Source: Patescibacteria group bacterium
GTDB taxonomy: Bacteria; Patescibacteriota; Patescibacteriia; Magasanikbacterales; GWA2-37-8
NCBI GenBank assembly: GCA_004321885.1
Contig: SCQK01000013.1
Location: forward strand, 96,001 to 160,000
Direction of reading: 5' to 3'
DNA: 64,000 bases
Shown: positions 16,700-38,468 of the stretch, piece by piece
Layout of the letters: each line of letters opens with the position of its first letter
Numbering within the stretch: position 1 is the first letter of the stretch
Position numbers and translations under genes: made by a program
Notes under the pieces: model-generated
The model's input: the letters and a program-made list of their open reading frames with translations, nothing else
Databases searched by the model: none
What the model was told of the DNA's origin: nothing

Positions 16700-18118
16700 T
16701 TATCCATACGGTAACTCCTCTGGCTCTGGCGGTTCTTCTTTTCTCTCTTCTTCCACAGCAGGCCCGACAGGCAAATCCAAATCAATGGGCAAGCCAAACG
16801 GCGGCTCCGAGCGCTTGGTGGCGGATTTCTGCAACAACGGGGTCTTCACACTCGGCAACGGGAAGTGCCACAAAGTGGCCAGCTCTTCTATGTTCAAAAT
16901 ATAGGGCGTGCCGTACACTTTAATCTTGCGCTTCTTAAACGCGTTCACGAATTTGCGTTTTTTCCAAACCACTATAAGCTTCTTAAACGCGTAGTAGGCC
17001 TTGGTCACCACGTAGGGCGTGAGCTGGTTGCGGTTGACCATGCTAAATTGCTTTAGCGAGCCGACATAGCCGTCCAAGCACCGCGAGGGATTGAAAACTT
17101 CCTTGCGCGCCACATACAGGGCGCGTATTTTTGTCTTAAAGCCGACCTTGGCGATTTTGTCTTCCACGGCCTGCACCGTATTTTTCAGGCCCGGCGGCAA
17201 TTCGCTCACTTTGCCGGCCACGACCTCTTCCCTTTTGACTTCTTTTTCCTTTGGTTCAAAGTTCCAATTCCACACGTCCATGAGCATCTCAAACAGCTTG
17301 GCCGGCAAACCCAAAATGCCGCCCAGAATGCCGGCCTTGGCCGGGGCTTTTTTTTGCGCGATGATTTCCTTTACCAGACTGATGCCGGCGGCCTGCCAGG
17401 TATCGGCCACTGGCTCAATCACGATTTGCGTGAAAAAATTCTCGCCCGCCCCGAGTCGCGTGAAATTTTCCAGCACCGCGGCCATAGGGTCGTTGAACAT
17501 GGCGTCTTTGGTCACGCTGTGCTCAAACTCGGGATAGGTGCGGATGGGGTAGGCATTGTGGCCGGCTAAAGTGAATTCCACGCCGAAGACGTCTTCCGCG
17601 TCATTGGGAAATTTTGTCGGAATGACGCCGACATAATCCTCTATTTCCGTGATTTCGGCCGTCGGGTATTGGGCGTAAATGGCCGCTTCCACCACGTCGC
17701 GAAATTCTTGCTCGGTATAAATTAAAAATTGAATATAGCCGGCCATGGAAATAATCTCAAAGCTGAACCACTTTTGTTTTTTGCCCAGCCAAAATTTTTC
17801 GCCGACATTGGGCCCGACCAGCGCGCCCGACAGGTGCGAAAAAAGCTGTTCCACGGCCTTGGGGCTTTGAATCACCTCTTGCGGAATCTCAATGGCCAGC
17901 ACGAGCCATTTCCATTTGCTTGTGTAAAGCCCCTGCCGATACCACAGCCACAGCTCCTGCCCCATGTAGAAAAAAATTAAGAGCAAAATAGCCCAGCCGA
18001 TGATGCCAAACAGGGCCAAAATTATTTTTCCGCTGGACCACGTAAGCAATTGGTCCCAAAACGAAAAATTTAGATTGAATGAGACTCCGCCAAAAGGCGA
18101 CTCCATGCCAGTGGGCAT
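16700..18118 (-). CDS. ATPase-less paralogue of the N-terminal module of the 848-aa ATPase (7901-10447)
   Basis: shared blocks: LVLAIEIPQE/VLVIKVPKE, EQLFSHLSGAL/ETLFSAIAGL, FSFEI...AAIYAQYPTAEITE/SFEI...QQIHAQYPHAEILE, ELATLWHFPLP/EMASFWHLPNP; N-terminal TM; no P-loop. Confidence 0.65.
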   Translation of the reverse strand: MPTGMESPFGGVSFNLNFSFWDQLLTWSSGKIILALFGIIGWAILLLIFFYMGQELWLWYRQGLYTSKWKWLVLAIEIPQEVIQSPKAVEQLFSHLSGALVGPNVGEKFWLGKKQKWFSFEIISMAGYIQFLIYTEQEFRDVVEAAIYAQYPTAEITEIEDYVGVIPTKFPNDAEDVFGVEFTLAGHNAYPIRTYPEFEHSVTKDAMFNDPMAAVLENFTRLGAGENFFTQIVIEPVADTWQAAGISLVKEIIAQKKAPAKAGILGGILGLPAKLFEMLMDVWNWNFEPKEKEVKREEVVAGKVSELPPGLKNTVQAVEDKIAKVGFKTKIRALYVARKEVFNPSRCLDGYVGSLKQFSMVNRNQLTPYVVTKAYYAFKKLIVVWKKRKFVNAFKKRKIKVYGTPYILNIEELATLWHFPLPSVKTPLLQKSATKRSEPPFGLPIDLDLPVGPAVEEERKEEPPEPEELPYG

Positions 18119-18306: not shown

Positions 18307-19221
18307 TCACACAACCGCCCGCCTTTGCCATTTTTCCGCCAGCACCAGCAGAGGGGCGGCGATAAAAATGGAAGAATACGCCCCGCTGGCAAAACCAATA
18401 AGCAGGGCCAGGGCGAAGTAATGGATAGAAGCGCCGCCAAAGAGATAAAGGGCGATAAGGGCGAACAAAGTGGTAACGGTCGTGTTGATAGAGCGCATTA
18501 AAGTCTGGTTCAGACCGTTGTTAACCACCTCGGCAAAGTCTTCGTTGCGCCGGCGCAATAAATTTTCCCTGATGCGGTCGTAGACCACGATGGTGTCGTG
18601 CACGGAAAAACCCAGCACGGTTAAGAGAGCCACCACGAAAGCAATATCCACCTCCACGCCCCAGCCATGCCCCAAAACCGAAAAAATACCCATCACCAAA
18701 AAGACGTCATGCACCACCGCGATTATGGCCAACAGGCCGTATTTCCAGCTGGCCACGGGCCGCGACACCTTGCGAAAGGCATAGGCGATATACAATATAA
18801 TGCCCAGGTTGACGAAGATAATGGCCCACACCGCCCGCGTGCGCAATTGCTTGCTTACGGCCGAGCCGATTGTTTCAAAACTAATTTCCTTCACCGTGTT
18901 TTCTTTGGTCTGAAAATTTTGCGTCAAGCGCTTTAGCGCCTCCTGATGTTTTTCTTCGCTCAAAAATTCGGTGCGGATAATAATGCTGTCTTCGCCGACG
19001 TTTTGAACTTGAACATTTTTCAAATCCACTTCGGCAAAAACTTTTTGCACATCAGCGGCCGGCGGCCGGTTGCGGCTAAACGATATTTCCAACAGAGAAC
19101 CGCCGGTAAAGTCAATGCCCGGCTTTAGCCCCCACATAAATATCAAAACAAAGGCGGCCACAGTTACCAGTCCGCTGAAACTAAGCAGTACCTTGGAATA
19201 CTTTATGAATGGTATGGTCAT
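18307..19221 (-). CDS. secF: protein translocase subunit SecF
   Basis: SecF signature KPGIDFTGGSLLEI plus a 6-TM core. Confidence 0.85.
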   Translation of the reverse strand: MTIPFIKYSKVLLSFSGLVTVAAFVLIFMWGLKPGIDFTGGSLLEISFSRNRPPAADVQKVFAEVDLKNVQVQNVGEDSIIIRTEFLSEEKHQEALKRLTQNFQTKENTVKEISFETIGSAVSKQLRTRAVWAIIFVNLGIILYIAYAFRKVSRPVASWKYGLLAIIAVVHDVFLVMGIFSVLGHGWGVEVDIAFVVALLTVLGFSVHDTIVVYDRIRENLLRRRNEDFAEVVNNGLNQTLMRSINTTVTTLFALIALYLFGGASIHYFALALLIGFASGAYSSIFIAAPLLVLAEKWQRRAVV

Positions 19222-19230
19222 AGTGAAAAA

Positions 19231-21333
19231 TTATGTATGGGATTGCTTCCCGCCAGAGGCGGGCAGGCGCTCTTCGCTCGCAATGACATTTTTTTTATGC
19301 CCCAAAAACATCCAATTGCCATACTCATTGAACCAGCGGAAAACAATGCGGATATTGATGCGGGTAACGGTAATGGCCGTAAACATGGAGACCAACGTGC
19401 CGATGGCCAACGTGACGGCAAAGCCCTGCACAAACCCGGTGCCAAACCATATAAGGAATCCGCAACTGATAAGGGTGGTGATATTGCTGTCGCGAATGGA
19501 CGGCCAGGCGCGCGCGAACGACTCCTCGGCCGCCGACAGCAAACTGCGGCCATTGCGTAATTCTTCTTTCATGCGCTCAAACACCAGCACATTGGCGTCT
19601 ACGGCCATACCGATAGACAAAATAAAGCCGGCAATGCCCGACAAGGTTAAAGTTACTCCGATAATCTTAAAGATGGCCAAACTTAAAAGGGCGTAGACGA
19701 GCAGAGAAACATTGGCCAACAAGCCGGGAAAGCGATAATAGCCAATCATGAAAAGCAAAACTAAAATCAAACCAACAATGCCGGCGAAAAAACTTTTACG
19801 CAGATACTCGGAACCCAAAGTGGCGTCCACTTTCTGCTGGCTGATGAGGTCTACGGCCACGGGCAAAGCGCCGGCGTTGAGGCGCTGGGACAAAAGCCGC
19901 GCTTCGCCGAGCGTGAAACTGCCCGAGATGACGGCCGAGCCGCTGGTGATGGCTTCGTTCACGCGCGGAATGCTAATGGGCTCACCGTCCAAAAATATGG
20001 CCACGTTCTTGCCCACATTGCGCGTGGTGATATCGCCGAACAATTTTGTGCCTTCTTCGTTGAATTGCAGATTGACCTGCACTTGTCCGGACTGATTATC
20101 CTGGGTTACCTCGGCGCGCTTGAGCTGCTTGCCCGACAAGCCCGAGCTTTTCCATTCCTCGGCCGGCGGCACGACATCGGAAGCCTGTTTAGTCTTCACG
20201 TACACGCGGGCCACCTCATATTCCCTGGACGGCTTTTCATCTTTTTTGTAAATAATGTGAAAACCGAATTTTGTTTCCACCGCATTGGACACAGCGCCCT
20301 TGGGCATCGCGCCCGCCGCCTCTTCAAACTCCGGCACCATTTGGCCCTTCTTAAACCAGCCCAGCTCTTCGCCGCGCACTTCCAATTTTTTATCCGGAGA
20401 ATATTGCTGTACCAACTGGGCAAAATTGGCGGGCGACGCCTGGGCTTTTATTTCACCGGCTCTTTGGCGGGCCTGGTCTTTGTTCAATTTGCTTTCACAC
20501 CCTTCGGCGCCGGCATAACAAACCAACAAGTGCGACGCGTTTATCATTTTTTCGCCGTCGCGGCCGGAGAGCCGTTTTACCACGTTCAAGCCGTCAAAAC
20601 TTTTCACCAGGGTTTTGCCCGCCTGGCCGTCTTTGGCTTTCTCGGCCCAAGCAAAAATTTCCGGATAAATTTCTTTGGTAATAAATCCCAGATTGCCGCC
20701 CTTGTCTTTGCTGGCCTGGTCTTCGGAATATTGGGCCGCGATTTTGCCGAAATCGGCCCCGGGTTTTAGGGCCGCGGTTAGAGCTGTTTTGGCTTTTTTA
20801 TCGGCCGCGCTGTTAAAAACGTCCAGGTCTTTTTTTTCTTGGGGTGTCAAATCGCGGGCCGGGTCGTGATTTTCTTCCTTAAATTCCAGTATCGGAGTTT
20901 CGCCAATCATTTTGATGGCCTGATTGACATCGGTAACGCCGGGCAATTCCACAATCACGCGATAATCGCCGCCGACCTTGGTGGTTTGCACCAATGGCTC
21001 GGCCACGCCCAGGCCCCCGCGCACGCGCCGCTCTATCACGTCGCGCACGCCTTCCACGGCGTCGCCGCGGTCGCCTTCGGGAATGGTTTCTGTTTTGGCC
21101 TGATAAACCAAATGCGCGCCGCCCTGCAAATCCAGGCCCAGATTAAAGCCCTTATCCGGCAAGCGGGGCAAACCGATGTTGGCCGCGTTGTTGAGCCAGT
21201 CTATGCCGCGGTTGGCGAACGCCGGCAAAACAATAAGCAGGGTGGCAATGGCCAAAGCGACCACGCCGGCCGCGTGCCATTTTAATTTTTTCGCCGACGA
21301 AACCTTGTTGGAAATTTTTACTGCCATAAACAC
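19231..21333 (-). CDS. secD: protein translocase subunit SecD with inserted parvulin-type PPIase domain(s)
   Basis: SecD motifs LGLDLQGG and GGLGVAEPLVQ plus the TM core; inserted segment ASHLLV...GEELGWFKKGQMVPEFEEAA...FGFHIIYK matches PpiC/parvulin; a second partial parvulin-like segment GADFGKIAAQYSED...GGNLGF. Confidence 0.85.
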   Translation of the reverse strand: MFMAVKISNKVSSAKKLKWHAAGVVALAIATLLIVLPAFANRGIDWLNNAANIGLPRLPDKGFNLGLDLQGGAHLVYQAKTETIPEGDRGDAVEGVRDVIERRVRGGLGVAEPLVQTTKVGGDYRVIVELPGVTDVNQAIKMIGETPILEFKEENHDPARDLTPQEKKDLDVFNSAADKKAKTALTAALKPGADFGKIAAQYSEDQASKDKGGNLGFITKEIYPEIFAWAEKAKDGQAGKTLVKSFDGLNVVKRLSGRDGEKMINASHLLVCYAGAEGCESKLNKDQARQRAGEIKAQASPANFAQLVQQYSPDKKLEVRGEELGWFKKGQMVPEFEEAAGAMPKGAVSNAVETKFGFHIIYKKDEKPSREYEVARVYVKTKQASDVVPPAEEWKSSGLSGKQLKRAEVTQDNQSGQVQVNLQFNEEGTKLFGDITTRNVGKNVAIFLDGEPISIPRVNEAITSGSAVISGSFTLGEARLLSQRLNAGALPVAVDLISQQKVDATLGSEYLRKSFFAGIVGLILVLLFMIGYYRFPGLLANVSLLVYALLSLAIFKIIGVTLTLSGIAGFILSIGMAVDANVLVFERMKEELRNGRSLLSAAEESFARAWPSIRDSNITTLISCGFLIWFGTGFVQGFAVTLAIGTLVSMFTAITVTRINIRIVFRWFNEYGNWMFLGHKKNVIASEERLPASGGKQSHT

Positions 21334-22865: not shown

Positions 22866-23159
22866 TCACTCCCATTCGTCGCTCAAGTCTTTCAAAGTGG
22901 GATTAAGTCCTTTTACTAAATTTATTTTCCACTGACGATGCCAATTTTTGATTTGTTTCTCTCTGTTAATTGCGTCACGTGGATCCAAAAAAACTTCGTA
23001 ATAAACTAACTTTTTCAGATTATACTGTTTTGTAAATCCCTCATTGATTCCATTTTTATGTTCTTCAAGCCGACGTTCTAGATTGTTCGTTATACCTACA
23101 TATAAAACCGTGTTGATGATGTTTGTTAAAATATACACATAAAATGTTTTCCCCTCCAT
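22866..23159 (-). CDS. GIY-YIG nuclease superfamily protein (UPF0213-like)
   Basis: YVYIL...LYVGITNNLERRLEEH matches the GIY-YIG motif. Confidence 0.85.
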   Translation of the reverse strand: MEGKTFYVYILTNIINTVLYVGITNNLERRLEEHKNGINEGFTKQYNLKKLVYYEVFLDPRDAINREKQIKNWHRQWKINLVKGLNPTLKDLSDEWE

Positions 23160-30328: not shown

Positions 30329-30988
30329 CTAATTTTTTTTATTTTCCAAAATCCTCATTAATTCATCTCTCATTTTTTTATTATGGTAATAAACTGTTAA
30401 AACTCCATGTCTACTTTTTTCGCGATAAGTACCTTTTCTAACAGACATTGTTATCGTGCTTTTGTAAAATTGATTTTTATTTACCTTTATTTGCCCCTTC
30501 CAAAACCTTAGCGCTTCAGTCACTGAAATGTCATTGAATAACTGAAGGCTAAACTTAAGGTCTTTTCTTCTAATGGAAAAAAATTTAACTAAAAAGTCAA
30601 TAAATTTCTTGACCAATCTTGGGTCAGTATTTCCCAACCTAACTGTGCATTTATCCGCTTTTGTTCCCTCCCCCCAGTATAACCCAAGTCCAAAACCATA
30701 TAAAATTCCCTCTTTTAATGTATGTGGATACTTTATGACAAATGGATCACCGTTTGGGTTATTTTTTTTGTAAATAGCTTCACTGATAGATCTACACGTA
30801 ATCGAATATTTTTCCATCCAATAACGTATTTTATTTACTGAACATTCGAAAATATTGGCAATTTCTTGTGCCGACTTTCCCTGATTTTGATATAATTTTT
30901 GCAAAACACCTTTGCTTATCATATCACAAATTATATCATAGCCGACTGAATAGTACAAGTAACCCCAAGTAGATAATATGGTTGTCAA
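30329..30988 (-). CDS. HTH-containing protein with a degenerate LAGLIDADG-like motif; putative free-standing homing endonuclease between two intron-containing tRNA genes (TTG start)
   Basis: N-terminal HTH (SAQEIANIFECSVNKIRYWMEKY); ILYGFGLGLYWGEGTKADKCTVRLGNTD resembles the single-motif LAGLIDADG core; the ORF opens inside the tRNA-Tyr 3' exon and ends 6 nt before tRNA-Thr. Confidence 0.4.
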   Translation of the reverse strand: MTTILSTWGYLYYSVGYDIICDMISKGVLQKLYQNQGKSAQEIANIFECSVNKIRYWMEKYSITCRSISEAIYKKNNPNGDPFVIKYPHTLKEGILYGFGLGLYWGEGTKADKCTVRLGNTDPRLVKKFIDFLVKFFSIRRKDLKFSLQLFNDISVTEALRFWKGQIKVNKNQFYKSTITMSVRKGTYREKSRHGVLTVYYHNKKMRDELMRILENKKN

Positions 30989-30997
30989 TGAACCTTG

Positions 30998-31291
30998 TGG
31001 GTGGAGTAGGATTCGAACCTACGAAGGCAGAGCCAGCAGATTTCATTTATCCAAAAGTTTCCTTCTAGCATGGACTATATCTTTATCCTATCCGCCAATC
31101 TGGCCGATAGGATACTCTGGTATCTAGTCTCTACGGCGCCCCCGACTTTGCCGGGGTTCCCACGGTATTAGCATGCCCGCCAGTTGGCGGATTTAGCTTT
31201 CACCGTTATCCCAGAGAGTTCATCCTAAAGTTACCTTTAGGAGCTGCGTTTCAACACAGTCTGCTCCAGTTGACCACTTTGGTATCCACCC
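30998..31291 (-). tRNA. tRNA-Tyr (anticodon GTA) interrupted between nt 35/36 by a 212-nt group I intron (exons 31256-31291 and 30998-31043)
   Basis: joined exons GGGTGGATACCAAAGTGGTCAACTGGAGCAGACTGT|AAATCTGCTGGCTCTGCCTTCGTAGGTTCGAATCCTACTCCACCCA: type-II tRNA with a long variable arm and an anticodon loop CUGUAAA identical to E. coli tRNA-Tyr. Confidence 0.8.
31044..31255 (-). ncRNA. group I intron (IC3-like, Azoarcus/cyanobacterial tRNA-intron type) in the tRNA-Tyr anticodon loop
   Basis: contains GUAGAGACUAGA, identical to the P7/P3 core of the Azoarcus tRNA-Ile intron; P3-like GCUAAAUCCGCC; 5' exon ends in U and the intron ends in G. Confidence 0.7.
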
Positions 31292-31310
31292 ATCTTCTTA
31301 AATTTTCTTG

Positions 31311-31382
31311 AGCCGCCTCAGGGATTCGGACCCTGGACCTACGGTTTACAAAACCGTTGCTCTACCGCTGAGCTAAGGCGGC
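31311..31382 (-). tRNA. tRNA-Thr (anticodon TGT)
   Basis: GCCGCCT-TA-GCTC-AGCGGTA-GAGC-A-ACGGT-TTTGTAA-ACCGT-AGGTC-CAGGG-TCCGAAT-CCCTG-AGGCGGC-T. Confidence 0.85.
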
Positions 31383-34809: not shown

Positions 34810-36131
34810 ACAAATTTTTCTTTTAAGTAATTACTTAAATCTTTTATTGCCACCCTGTTTTGCTTCATGGTATCACGGTCGCGCACGGTGATTTTTTTGT
34901 CTTCCAGCGAATCAAAGTCCACTGTCACGCAATACGGGGTGCCGATTTCATCCTGCCGGCGATAGCGCTTGCCGATGCTTTGGGTGTCGTCGTAATCTAC
35001 CGCGAAATCAGCGCGCAAAGCCGCGGCCACCTCTTTAGCTACCTTAGCCAGATTTTCTTTTTTAGACAAGGGCAAAACAGCGACCTGTACCGGCGCCAAA
35101 TGTTTGGGAAATTTCATCACCACGCGCGTTTCGGTTTCGCCTTTTTCCGCCGTGGGGGCCTGTTCTTCGTGATACGCTTCCAACAAACACACCAGCAACG
35201 TGCGGTCTATGCCAAAGGTTGGCTCTATCACGTGCGGCAAAAACTTTTCGCCGGTTTCCGGGTCAGTATAATGCAAATCCTGCCCGCTCACAGCCTCGTG
35301 GCGCGACAAATCAAAATCCGTGCGATAGGCAATGCCGTGCAACTCTTGCGTTCCAAACGGGTATTTGTATTCAATATCCACCGTGCGCTTGCTGTAGTGG
35401 GCGCGCTCGTTGTCCGGTATTTCGCGCCAGACCAGATTATCCGTGTTTACTTGCATGGCATCTTTCCACCAGCGCTTGATTTCACTAAGCCACATTTCAA
35501 AAACTTTTTCCCATTCATCGGGCTTGATAAAATATTCCAGCTCGCCGATTTCAAATTCGCGCGTGCGGAAAATAAAATTGCCGGGCGTAATTTCATTGCG
35601 GAAACATTTGCCGATTTGGGCGATACCGAAAGGCAAACGGCGGCGAGTAGTGTTGACGATGTTTTTGAAATTGACGAACATGCCGCCGGCGGTCTCCGGG
35701 CGCAAATAAGCCGTGGTGGCGGTGTCTTCGGTGGTGCCCAAAAACGTCTTGAACATCAAATTAAAACTTTTTGGCGCGGTCAGCGCGCCGCCGCAGTCCG
35801 AACATTTTTTCCTTTTGGGGAGCTGGTCGCTGCGAAAACGATGATGGCACTTTTTACACTCCACCAGCTCATCGGAAAAATTTTGCAAATGCCCCGAGGC
35901 CTCCCAGGCCTTGGGGTTCATGATGATGGCGCTATCCAGCGGCACCATATCCTCGCGCTCTTGCACGAAAAATTTCCACCACAGTGATTTGATATTTTGT
36001 TTTAGCAAATGCCCGAGCGGGCCATAATCCCAGCTGTTAGCCAGTCCGCCGTAAATCTCACTGCCCGGGAACACAAACCCGCGCCGTTTGCACAGCGACA
36101 CGATTTTATCCATCAGGTCATTTTCTGGCAT
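34806..36131 (-). CDS. proS: proline--tRNA ligase (archaeal/eukaryote-type class II)
   Basis: class II motifs 2 and 3 (FRNEITPGNFIFRTREFEIGELEYF, GIAYRT...), C-terminal Zn-binding/anticodon-binding domain of the archaeal type. Confidence 0.9.
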   Translation of the reverse strand: MPENDLMDKIVSLCKRRGFVFPGSEIYGGLANSWDYGPLGHLLKQNIKSLWWKFFVQEREDMVPLDSAIIMNPKAWEASGHLQNFSDELVECKKCHHRFRSDQLPKRKKCSDCGGALTAPKSFNLMFKTFLGTTEDTATTAYLRPETAGGMFVNFKNIVNTTRRRLPFGIAQIGKCFRNEITPGNFIFRTREFEIGELEYFIKPDEWEKVFEMWLSEIKRWWKDAMQVNTDNLVWREIPDNERAHYSKRTVDIEYKYPFGTQELHGIAYRTDFDLSRHEAVSGQDLHYTDPETGEKFLPHVIEPTFGIDRTLLVCLLEAYHEEQAPTAEKGETETRVVMKFPKHLAPVQVAVLPLSKKENLAKVAKEVAAALRADFAVDYDDTQSIGKRYRRQDEIGTPYCVTVDFDSLEDKKITVRDRDTMKQNRVAIKDLSNYLKEKFV

Positions 36132-36310
36132 AAAATTTCAAATATTAATTCCATCAAACCCTTGACAAATGACGATTATGTGTTACACTATAATCAAATG
36201 TTAGCTGAACACTGACCGTATGGCAGGTGTCCCGGGGCGACTTGGGAATAGGCTATTCCCCCTTAAATGGGGGTTTTATTTTTTTATAATTCTAACACAA
36301 AAATCATTTT

Positions 36311-37234
36311 TTATAATACAATCTTATCTATTTGCTTGCTTAAATTTTTTCCACTAGACATAAACTTTAACGTTGCGAGCAAATCTGTTTGTGTTTGTGA
36401 CAACTTTTCACCTAAAATTTTATCTTGTTTGAATTTACCCGTATTTTCGCCATTTTTTTTCCGTTCTTTAAATGTTTTTGAGACGAAATGTTTGCCTAAT
36501 TCCTCCAATAACGTCGCTCTTTCATTCTCACAATTTTTTATCCTTTCTTCGGCCATTGAATTATAATCCTCCGAAATTTCTATTCCTAAATAATCGCAAC
36601 CCAATAATTTAGCCGCAACTAAAGTTGAACCGCTTCCCGAATATGGATCCAAGACAACCCCTCTTTTTCCGTCTAAAACCGAAAAAATTGCTCTTGCCGG
36701 CAGAATCATCGGAAATGGCGCGGGATGATTCACACATCGTTCCGGTGGAAATCGCCAAATAGACGTTAGTAAAGCATGTCTTGAGGCCAACTCCTCACCA
36801 ATTTTATTACCTGCGGGCTTATGCAACCAGTAAATACGTTCATCTACCTGCCAGAATCGCCATCCTCTGATATTGGCTGCTATCATTCTATCCCAAATTA
36901 TTTCCTGGCGCATGGTCCAATCCGATTTAGATAGCCAACTAATTGGATGTATCATCTCACCTTTTTCCCATCTCACTTTATGATTATAAAAAAAAGATCC
37001 GCCCGGTTTCGTTATACGAAAAATTTCGTTTAAAATTTCAACCTGTTCGTTTTGATACTCTTCTTCATTCTTGGCGTCACTAATCGCATTATACAAAACA
37101 TTTTTTACAAGCCAACCCTTATTTTTTTCCTTTTTATTATAAGGGGGTGAAGTAACGCAAACATCTATGATATTTGAATCAATCGTCTTTAAAATATCTA
37201 ATGTATTACCTTGTAAAATCTGATTGACTCTCAT
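36311..37234 (-). CDS. beta-class N4-cytosine/N6-adenine DNA methyltransferase
   Basis: motif IV SPPY near the N-terminus and motif I VVLDPYSGSGST near the C-terminus (circularly permuted beta class); AT-rich gene. Confidence 0.85.
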   Translation of the reverse strand: MRVNQILQGNTLDILKTIDSNIIDVCVTSPPYNKKEKNKGWLVKNVLYNAISDAKNEEEYQNEQVEILNEIFRITKPGGSFFYNHKVRWEKGEMIHPISWLSKSDWTMRQEIIWDRMIAANIRGWRFWQVDERIYWLHKPAGNKIGEELASRHALLTSIWRFPPERCVNHPAPFPMILPARAIFSVLDGKRGVVLDPYSGSGSTLVAAKLLGCDYLGIEISEDYNSMAEERIKNCENERATLLEELGKHFVSKTFKERKKNGENTGKFKQDKILGEKLSQTQTDLLATLKFMSSGKNLSKQIDKIVL

Positions 37235-37908
37235 TTTGCCTTTTCGGTTAAAAAATTATAAAATTTTCCGTTAAAATTGGAACGATTATCTTTTAGAGCC
37301 TTTACGTTAATATAAACGATTTTTAATTTTTTGCAATTTTGATAATCCCGAAAACCAAAGGAAGCACTTCGTAAAAAAGTCCCCTTCTCTCGACTCTTAT
37401 TTTTGAATCTTTTCTTTAATTTAAGCTTCAAACAGCTTGTAAATCCCTCGTTACAAAAAGGAAATTCCAAAATATAAATTAATTGCCCGTCAATAAAACC
37501 GCTAACCAAAATGTTTAGATTTGCCGCTAAATCTTTTTTAAGCCGCTCCGGTGTATAATCAGTGAAATTGCCACCTCCGTCAAGTTTTCTCGGCGTCTTA
37601 CGATTATTATTATCGCCGGTACAAATATTTCTCGGTTTTGCTTCACAAGCAATAAATTCACCGCCGATACTCACACTTTGTTTAAAACCATTGTAACCTA
37701 TTTTTTTGTTGCTGTGCGTATAGCCAGCCAAAGTTATCGTAATGAATTCTCTAATAGTAGAAGAATTTTTATCATTTATATAAATGGTAAGCAAATCATT
37801 AAATAACGATATTAAATCATCTTTAGATTTATCCAACAAAAGAGCATTCAACTCCTTATGCGGTTTGGTGGCGTATGTAATTAAAATATCAGATAACGCG
37901 TTATTCAT
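37231..37908 (-). CDS. putative type II restriction endonuclease (PD-(D/E)xK-like) cognate to the adjacent methyltransferase
   Basis: 4-nt overlap with the MTase gene; very AT-rich; candidate E-x-K in GGEFIACEAKP; no similarity to housekeeping proteins. Confidence 0.5.
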   Translation of the reverse strand: MNNALSDILITYATKPHKELNALLLDKSKDDLISLFNDLLTIYINDKNSSTIREFITITLAGYTHSNKKIGYNGFKQSVSIGGEFIACEAKPRNICTGDNNNRKTPRKLDGGGNFTDYTPERLKKDLAANLNILVSGFIDGQLIYILEFPFCNEGFTSCLKLKLKKRFKNKSREKGTFLRSASFGFRDYQNCKKLKIVYINVKALKDNRSNFNGKFYNFLTEKAK

Positions 37909-37919
37909 AAGCAGAAAAT

Positions 37920-38468
37920 TTACACCGTATTTATCTCCCCCTCTTTTTTCTCCCCCACTTCCTCAATTTTCTCGTTAAATTCTTTCACCATCTTGTCCAG
38001 CTCCTCCTGCAAGCGAAATTTTTCGTCTTCGCCGATTTCCTTGTCCGCCTCGGCCTGTTTCACCATCTCTTTGATTTCCTCGCGTGTCTTGCGCACGGAA
38101 ATGCGCGCCTGCTCTAATTTTTGGTGTAAAACTTTTATCAACTCGGCGCGGCGCTCGGTGGTGAGCTCGGGTAAAAATATGCGCACCGAATTGCCGTTGT
38201 TGACCGGATTTAACCCCAGCCCGCTGTCGCGCACCGCTTTTTCAATCGCGGCCAGCACGCTCTTATCCCACGGTTCTATGTTCACCGTCTTCTGGTCGGG
38301 CACAGTAATGGACGCCATTGCTTTTACCGGCTGTTTCACGCCATAAGCCTCTACCTGAATATCTTCCACGATAGCCGTGGAGGCGCGGCCCGTGCGCAAG
38401 CCAGACACGTCTTTTTTCAGGAACTCCACTATCTGGTCAAAGTCCGATTTGAAGTCATTGATGTTCAT
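37920..38468 (-). CDS. frr: ribosome recycling factor
   Basis: full-length RRF consensus (VSGLRTGRAS, VEAYG, ITVPDQ). Confidence 0.9.
   Translation of the reverse strand: MNINDFKSDFDQIVEFLKKDVSGLRTGRASTAIVEDIQVEAYGVKQPVKAMASITVPDQKTVNIEPWDKSVLAAIEKAVRDSGLGLNPVNNGNSVRIFLPELTTERRAELIKVLHQKLEQARISVRKTREEIKEMVKQAEADKEIGEDEKFRLQEELDKMVKEFNEKIEEVGEKKEGEINTV

Follow-up and report, generated by a model that had tools for sequence, protein, structure and literature searches.

Parvulin-type prolyl isomerases and chaperones have been placed beside the SecDF motor of bacterial protein translocation in several systems. PpiD photo-crosslinks to SecD's P1 head and cooperates with SecDF late in translocation (PMC7793623; PMC9643414), and what it does with SecD is given as capture followed by hand-over rather than catalysis (PMC7793623). 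The P1 head, as summarised in the same source, binds translocon-engaged substrate and swings with proton flow (PMC7793623). SurA is a binder of the holo-translocon, and in every AlphaFold model its P1 and P2 parvulins lie on the P1 head of SecDF (PMC9987972). In Mycoplasma pneumoniae, PrsA-like Mdp lipoproteins form a dome on SecYEG–SecDF, in which one subunit is catalytically competent and is touched by substrate density (bioRxiv 10.1101/2025.04.25.650208; 10.1101/2024.09.05.611430). Here we describe a secD gene in a 64,000-nucleotide stretch of DNA from a Patescibacteria group bacterium (GenBank assembly GCA_004321885.1, contig SCQK01000013.1, positions 96,001 to 160,000; the whole stretch is called the window below). 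SecD is regarded as a proton-driven motor that draws secreted proteins from the Sec channel. The product of this secD carries two parvulin domains between the base and the head of P1; chaperone and motor, which elsewhere are known to pair only as separate proteins, are joined in it as a single polypeptide.

The secD open reading frame (ORF; Table 1) is matched by the family profile TIGR01129 with 374.1 bits (cutoff 244.4) over residues 65-659 (NCBIfam). The corresponding NCBI record, P0001 ('protein translocase subunit SecD [Patescibacteria group bacterium]', 698 residues), starts two codons later and is otherwise identical. The inserted module lies where the P1 base, after its last strand (ILEFKEE), runs by a short loop into the first strand of the P1 head, a loop of only about 18 residues in the insert-free relative P0213; its boundaries were set by a clean indel between P0213 and P0142, a relative with a single parvulin domain. 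The window SecD is matched by the Pfam families Rotamase_3 (PF13616; 112.5 bits, cutoff 22.5, E=2.1e-32) and Rotamase (PF00639; 104.5 bits, cutoff 21.7, E=6.2e-30), the best Rotamase stretch being residues 253-364, which correspond to profile positions 5-113 of 116. A search of PDB sequences with SecD residues 146-400 matched the insert to PrsA parvulin domains (6vj6, E=5.5e-14). The P1 and P2 domains of SurA (1m5y, residues 172-364) were aligned with the insert in the same order (E=5.7e-13), and a Foldseek search with the model of the window SecD aligned SurA over about 250 columns at 25% identity. Among the NCBIfam models, SecD 179-367 aligns with SurA 196-384 and SecD 147-252 with the parvulin region of PpiD. 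All of the PrsA, SurA and PpiD models scored far below their family cutoffs: PrsA models reached 68-77 bits (NF002827, 76.6 against 343; NF002846, 75.3 against 361), SurA (NF008038) 66.6 bits against 394 with its P1-P2 region alone aligned, and PpiD (NF008054) 59.4 bits against 493 with its parvulin region alone aligned. The window protein is a member of the SecD family with a genuine parvulin domain, outside the PrsA, SurA and PpiD families, and two parvulin units with their linkers account for the whole insert.

The P1 head is intact and follows directly after the insert. Pfam SecDF_P1_head (PF22599) matches residues 397-492 over profile positions 19-114 of 114 (99 bits, cutoff 27, E=1.7e-28), and the full head secondary structure is seen in the AlphaFold model. 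The N-terminal part of the P1 base, which ends in the strand ILEFKEE (residues 148-154, AlphaFold), is recognised by SecD_1st (PF21760; residues 94-155, 53 bits, cutoff 27). When the model was compared with the PDB by Foldseek, the SecDF structures 5yhf, 5xan and 3aqp ranked first, and the Thermus P1 domain 3aqo (221 residues) was aligned over 431 columns with a gap of about 210 columns. The head is therefore not replaced, given the PF22599 match, the modelled head elements and the gapped alignment of 3aqo. In a sample of 202 two-domain SecD sequences, the columns of the base have a mean conservation of 0.75, those of the head 0.74 and those of the transmembrane (TM) region 0.71, while the inner and outer parvulins reach 0.64 and 0.51, respectively. 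Asp579, Asn581 and Arg587 are present in all 199 aligned sequences, the remaining three being gapped there; we take Asp579 to be the counterpart of the functional proton-path aspartate of Thermus and E. coli SecD.

An earlier note on this DNA had drawn attention to the locus at window positions 20076-20886, that is, SecD residues ~150-419. It described a SecD ORF of 700 residues with normal N- and C-terminal blocks, which agrees with a motor found complete by Pfam, TIGR01129, AlphaFold and Foldseek, and a complete PpiC/parvulin domain within it, which is borne out by the Rotamase_3 match and the PDB matches to PrsA and SurA. The motifs it quoted were all found: ASHLLV (266-271), GEELGWFKKGQMVPEFEEAA (321-340) and FGFHIIYK (356-363), together with GADFGKIAAQYSED (192-205) and GGNLGFITK (212-220) in the first parvulin segment. 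Its placing of the insert where the P1 head should be was mistaken, and its estimate of about 270 residues is reduced to the ~240 measured (157-396). The domain search that it had proposed as a check assigned the insert to parvulin, as claimed, and yet found a true P1 head immediately behind it. The further segment that it called partial is indeed parvulin-like, although the domain is complete, with its beta1 strand supplied from downstream by residues 372-380; what the note missed is the circular permutation of this parvulin, and that the canonical domain is nested within it.

An AlphaFold2 model of the window SecD, made from a 64-sequence alignment, has a mean predicted local distance difference test score (pLDDT) of 79 overall and 88-94 over the insert; statements on three-dimensional structure in this work rest on DSSP strings, pLDDT, fold-search scores and covariation. 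Two continuous strands of 24 residues pass through both parvulin domains, so that the inner domain is canonical and the outer domain receives its beta1 from downstream. The inner domain keeps the canonical strand order beta1-alpha1-3-beta2-alpha4-beta3-beta4, with beta1 at 263-271 (bearing His268) and alpha1 to beta4 at 285-365 (bearing His359), and has the whole active-site set of His268, Asp314, Met332, Phe336 and His359. It is carried at the tip of the hairpin formed by beta4 and beta1' of the outer domain.

Covariation in the 202 two-domain sequences (effective number 156) was measured as mutual information with average product correction. Between outer beta4 and beta1', 10 of 156 pairs exceeded the 99th percentile, as did 8 of 143 between inner beta1 and inner beta4, whereas the hairpin alternatives yielded 1 of 143 and 0 of 156. 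The top covarying pairs (250-376, 256-373, 258-371 and 259-370) run in antiparallel register, and entry-linker residues 158-160 covary with exit-linker residues 386-389. Mutual information is confounded by phylogeny, but setting each pairing against its alternative provides a control within the same data. A stalk of two strands would carry the module into and out of the base-to-head connection. A simple, non-nested hairpin topology was ruled out for the two-domain protein by the continuous modelled strands and the covariation. The SecD strand LEFKE was also considered as beta1 of the first domain and was ruled out, both by the explicit ASHIL beta1 that follows beta4 in one-domain relatives and by the covariation that pairs beta4 with residues 372-380.

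In the outer domain, as in the lone domain of one-domain relatives, beta1 comes after beta4, the order of a parvulin that has been circularly permuted. This follows from the order of elements in the one-domain relatives, an indel of about 118 residues, out-of-order alignments, two AlphaFold models and the covariation. One-domain proteins read LEFKE, linker, alpha1 and onward to FG(F/Y/W)HIIKK, about 12 residues, (K)ASHIL(I/F)KT, linker and head, with the His-bearing beta1 strand after beta4, and their Pfam Rotamase match begins only at profile position 10-13. P0213 (446 residues) is 81% identical to the one-domain P0142 and about 118 residues shorter in one clean gap, which extends from just after LEFKEQNPxPE to just after ASHILIKTKSK; these limits imply a module with alpha1 as its first element and beta1 as its last. 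The AlphaFold model of P0142 (pLDDT 85 overall, 87-96 over the parvulin domain) has the order alpha1-alpha2-alpha3-beta2-alpha4-beta3, beta4 (222-234), a two-residue turn and beta1 (237-248).

Compared by phmmer in its native order, the one-domain module aligns with canonical parvulins from alpha1 onward only (Pin1 from residue 75), and its trailing KEVKASHILIKTK aligns out of order, with PrsA positions 3-15. Placing beta1 first gives alignments over the whole length (Pin1 53-163, Staphylococcus aureus PrsA 8-109, Ess1 59-168) and better E-values: 8.9e-10 instead of 1.4e-7 for Pin1, and 3.1e-16 instead of 8.2e-12 for S. aureus PrsA. The best PrsA match of the one-domain form is 6xd8 (1e-17), and a hidden Markov model (HMM) of the inner domain of the window family likewise matches one-domain proteins out of order. 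A tandem copy of the unit [alpha1…beta4, beta1] gives the window order alpha1…beta4, beta1, alpha1…beta4, beta1. The simplest and most probable origin would be that a permuted insert with one domain, of the kind still present in sister lineages, was duplicated in tandem. No paper describing a SecD–parvulin fusion or a circularly permuted parvulin was found in literature searched largely without subscription journals, in keeping with the earlier note, whose author knew of no characterised example of the architecture.

Conservation differs between the two domains of the insert. His268 and His359 are both His in 197 of the 202 two-domain sequences, position 314, which corresponds to Cys113 of Pin1, is Glu or Asp in 192, and Met332, Phe336 and Gly357 are kept in 180, 199 and 202, respectively. 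At the His positions of the outer domain the window protein has Asn250 and Arg376, a combination found in 117 of 202; position 250 is Asn in 122, and His is never dominant there. In the one-domain class, both His residues are kept in at least 90% of 55 sequences. Two cysteines in the beta1–alpha1 loop of the inner domain, Cys272 and Cys279, occur together in 180 of 202 sequences and are both missing from 22, neither occurring singly. This all-or-none pattern predicts a probable disulfide in an extracytoplasmic domain. One-domain relatives cannot have the pair, because the permutation cuts the beta1-alpha1 loop. We note that the predicted disulfide would staple the loop that binds phosphate in Pin1-type parvulins.

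The distribution of the fusion was examined among 1.84 billion representative proteins at 50% identity, of which the top 150 were classified with sub-domain HMMs built from the window family. A parvulin between base and head was found in 69 of these 150, in three size classes: about 560-590 residues with one domain; about 670-700 residues with two domains, or about 1000-1100 when fused to SecF; and about 775-940 residues (P0162, P0175, P0164, P0203 and others), in which the insert measures 340-470 residues and, by eye, extra degenerate parvulin-like units precede one canonical parvulin. The members of about 780-830 residues (P0162, P0175 and others) were considered as an independent PrsA-like insertion with an N/C domain, a possibility that was dropped when inspection by eye showed the same plan, the extra degenerate units ending in a trailing beta1-like strand. 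Within the class of about 775-940 residues, P0164 has an apparent additional hydrophobic segment after the start of the head, and P0175 has no catalytic His in any unit.

The fusion is conserved and not a one-off. All 120 matches listed for the window protein share its Pfam domain set at 61-67% identity, and those of them that are named are SecD of Magasanikbacteria or Patescibacteria; a search seeded with the one-domain form adds Kuenenbacteria, Buchananbacteria and Parcubacteria (one-domain form) and Falkowbacteria (two-domain form). When one genome per GTDB species was scanned, at least 351 genomes encoded a relative of the insert, and the best 80 of these covered all 286 query residues at 35-57% identity. 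One- to three-unit versions thus occur in at least 351 GTDB species representatives, with titles, among the matches listed, of Magasanik-, Falkow-, Uhr- and Buchananbacteria and of the Parcubacteria or Patescibacteria group. All informatively named carriers among the listed matches (Magasanik-, Falkow-, Uhr-, Buchanan- and Kuenenbacteria) are Parcubacteria-group Patescibacteria and are annotated only as 'SecD'; NCBI taxonomy places the named groups in the Parcubacteria group of the Patescibacteria group. The public sequences bear automatic SecD annotations and precomputed Pfam domain lists.

Some loci in species-representative metagenome-assembled genomes of GTDB carry other titles: L001, L005-L007, L010, L013 and about 25 more are labelled 'uncultured Gammaproteobacteria bacterium' (TPA_asm co-assemblies), and L021 is labelled 'Binatia'. 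A spread beyond Patescibacteria was rejected, since the 'Gammaproteobacteria'-titled loci that were compared share the secA…secD-secF-ORF472 synteny and 50-70% protein identity with the window; Magasanikbacteria-titled loci have the same gene order. The 'Gammaproteobacteria' titles look like generic or mislabelled taxonomy.

Set beside the described systems, the window SecD resembles canonical SecDF of Thermus thermophilus (3AQP, 5XAN and 5YHF) in TM1, P1 base, P1 head, TM2-6 and the adjacent secF, with Asp579, Asn581 and Arg587 in the conserved GMAVDANVL(V/I)FER motif, and differs by the ~240-residue double-parvulin module that follows base strand LEFKE and precedes the first strand of the head. 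PrsA, the lipoprotein foldase of Bacillus, Staphylococcus and Listeria, gives the best sequence matches for the parvulin, is likewise of the non-phospho-specific type with an acidic residue at the Pin1-Cys113 position, and handles Sec substrates outside the membrane of a single-membrane cell. PrsA is, however, a separate lipoprotein dimer with its parvulin inserted in an N/C chaperone domain, whereas the window module has neither N/C domain nor lipobox, has SecD as its host and has a permuted outer unit. SurA of the E. coli periplasm shares the arrangement of two tandem parvulins, the first inactive-like and the second active, but it is a soluble protein with an N/C core domain, its clients are outer-membrane proteins, its binding to SecDF is non-covalent, and its parvulins are neither permuted nor nested. 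PpiD (with YfgM) is a membrane-tethered inactive parvulin chaperone at SecYEG/SecDF; it stands apart from SecD, anchored by a TM segment of its own and equipped with a large chaperone domain, while in the window the tether is the SecD polypeptide and one domain looks, from its sequence, catalytically competent. The Mycoplasma dome (Mdp436, Mdp444 and Mdp489 on SecYEG-SecDF) likewise has PrsA-like parvulin proteins seated on SecDF itself, at the outer face of a genome-reduced, wall-less or single-membrane bacterium, with one subunit keeping the catalytic residues and the others degenerate. It is a non-covalent chamber of large lipoproteins with SurA-like domains, in contrast to the single small insert within SecD.

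By analogy with these systems, we favour, with somewhat better than even confidence, a reading of the module as a holdase and prolyl isomerase of the PrsA/PpiD/SurA kind, tethered in cis at the translocon exit. The module would lie on the outer side of the membrane, next to the P1 head that binds substrate, the side of P1 being taken from homology with SecD. The outer domain would hold the chains that come out of SecYEG and are presumably bound by the proton-driven head, and the inner domain would isomerise their prolyl bonds as they emerge; together, holding and isomerisation could limit back-sliding and speed folding at the exit site. The fusion is likely to be a covalent version of the contacts reported between PpiD and SecD, SurA and SecDF, and Mycoplasma Mdp proteins and SecDF. 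A bolder proposal, which we put forward tentatively and regard as rather doubtful, is that a foldase has been built into the SecDF motor across a large clade of Patescibacteria, in which each proton-driven swing of the head would hand the chain to an attached parvulin, apparently the first permuted one, in a translocation-folding machine of one polypeptide; stand-alone PrsA/PpiD would have been replaced, and the one- to three-unit stages of duplication would still be extant.

Several observations weigh against the holdase-isomerase reading. The module has no N/C chaperone domain, to which PrsA, SurA and PpiD owe most of their chaperone activity, and the predicted template modelling score of the window SecD model (0.40) leaves the orientation between domains uncertain. 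Every catalytic His has been lost in some lineages (P0175, P0136 and P0152), P0136 being so degenerate that Pfam detects no Rotamase domain. The whole module is deleted in P0213, P0312 and P0364, relatives of P0142 at 58-81% identity: P0213 has the clean deletion of ~118 residues, and P0312 and P0364 have a short unrelated linker instead of the module. The module can therefore be lost and, judging from these sequences, has apparently been lost more than once; given the His-less lineages and the deletions, neither catalysis nor the module is indispensable. The His pair of parvulins has, moreover, been argued to be structural rather than strictly catalytic, and its conservation is no proof of activity. 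One alternative is a non-catalytic substrate clamp, in which the parvulin folds would only widen the binding surface of the P1 head, as a holdase that prevents back-sliding, and isomerase activity would be irrelevant, as in the parvulin domains of SurA and PpiD. Loss of the His pair from the outer domain in nearly all sequences, whole lineages without His in any unit (P0175, and P0136 with no Rotamase detected) and the capture-and-hand-over role described for PpiD with SecD (PMC7793623) all fit such a clamp. The inner domain nevertheless keeps His268 and His359 in 197 of 202 sequences, plus the acidic residue, Met332 and Phe336, and the one-domain class keeps both His in at least 90%. A generic binding surface would not call for this retention of the active site, which speaks against the clamp, and we consider it unlikely, though a serious competitor.

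A structural or regulatory role, in which the module would tune the swing of the head between conformations or dock SecDF to another envelope component and leave substrates untouched, appears improbable. It would suit the insertion at the base-to-head connection, which is the hinge of head rotation, the covariation of entry and exit linkers as a two-stranded stalk, and the dispensability of the module in close relatives. Nothing, however, points to a specific partner; foldases that act on substrates have this fold and these conserved active-site residues, and in three independent systems it is to handle substrates that parvulin chaperones are placed at the SecD head. Replacement of the P1 head, with a foldase standing in for the substrate-binding domain, was dropped and has next to no probability: the head is intact in Pfam, AlphaFold and Foldseek, and its conservation equals that of the base. 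The same negligible chance attaches to an assembly or gene-calling artefact, a chimeric contig or frameshift that fused a PrsA-like gene into secD, against which stand the uninterrupted architecture on hundreds of independent contigs (NCBI, JGI, ENA and Logan), its presence in at least 351 species genomes and the conserved secA…secD-secF synteny.

The window protein is a complete and, in all probability, functional SecD, with secF adjoining, from a Magasanikbacteria-like member of the Parcubacteria group. The adjacency of secD and secF is kept in nearly all related loci compared; a tRNA-Val gene lies just upstream of secD, and secA is 2 kb further upstream. A regular-expression search of the 64-kb window, the part of the genome covered, found no second parvulin. 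Directly downstream of secF is an ORF of 472 residues (ORF472) without a Pfam family and with an N-terminal membrane segment apparent by eye. It occupies the same position in most related loci at 32-58% identity and may be a clade-specific partner of the secDF operon. Between secA and secD is a stand-alone ORF with a GIY-YIG nuclease domain. Elsewhere in the window, a group I intron matching the full Rfam model has no obvious host gene and lies just 3' of a tRNA-Thr gene and 5' of an ORF without a Pfam match. A dip in guanine plus cytosine (GC) content covers two ORFs, one of which has, by eye, an SPPY motif typical of DNA methyltransferases; from its composition and this motif, the stretch may be an acquired restriction-modification island.

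Table 1. Features of the window, in window coordinates and SecD residues
Feature	Window position	Strand	SecD residues	Remarks
secD ORF	19231..21333	-	1-700	700 residues from GTG; stop codon 19231-19233; NCBI start is Met3 at 21327
P1 base, N-terminal part	20866..21156	-	60-156	Sec_GG motif PF07549 60-81; SecD_1st PF21760 94-155
Inserted module	20146..20865	-	157-396	~240 residues; two nested parvulin domains with a linker at entry and exit
Outer parvulin-like domain, alpha1-to-beta4 part	20566..20844	-	164-256	Catalytically degenerate; Asn250 at the beta4 His position
Outer domain elements (AlphaFold2)			164-245	Helices 164-188, 195-202, 206-209; strand 214-218; helix 224-232; strand 243-245
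Continuous strand (AlphaFold2)			248-271	24 residues, passing through both domains
Inner canonical parvulin (peptidyl-prolyl isomerase) domain	20239..20547	-	263-365	Pfam 253-364
Cys272/Cys279 loop segment	20497-20520	-	272-279	
Inner domain elements (AlphaFold2)			285-354	Helices 285-298, 304-311; strand 319-327; helix 334-342; strand 352-354
Second continuous strand (AlphaFold2)			357-380	24 residues; then head from strand 394-400 on
beta1' strand	20194..20220	-	372-380	YEVARVYVK; completes the outer permuted domain; Arg376 at the His position
P1 head subdomain, intact	19858..20145	-	397-492	PF22599; AlphaFold strands and helices 394-502
P1 base, C-terminal part, and TM2-6	19294..19857	-	493-680	PF02355 494-656
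secF	18307..19221	-		304 residues; directly downstream of secD, same operon; TIGR00966 294 bits (cutoff 160)
ORF472	16700-18118	-		472 residues
GIY-YIG ORF	22866-23159	-		97 residues; PF01541 E=1e-19
ORF beside intron	30329-30988	-		219 residues
Group I intron	31051-31263	-		Rfam RF00028, 61.7 bits
tRNA-Thr	31310-31382	-		
Low-GC stretch	36001-38000			GC 0.36, against ~0.50 elsewhere
ORF in low-GC stretch	36311-37234	-		SPPY motif
ORF in low-GC stretch	37231-37908	-		

The crosslinks of PpiD to SecD, the binding of SurA to the holo-translocon and the Mycoplasma dome concern proposed contacts between parvulins and the SecD head that are transient and hard to study. A natural covalent fusion in hundreds of species is independent 'Rosetta-stone' evidence for a functional pairing of the two, and it offers a stable construct for the structure and biochemistry of the coupling between translocation and folding. 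The permuted and nested parvulin, with its one-, two- and three-unit relatives and recent clean deletions, constitutes a natural series on permutation by duplication. For the organisms themselves, the fusion suggests how small-genome, single-membrane bacteria may organise the folding of proteins outside the cytoplasm.

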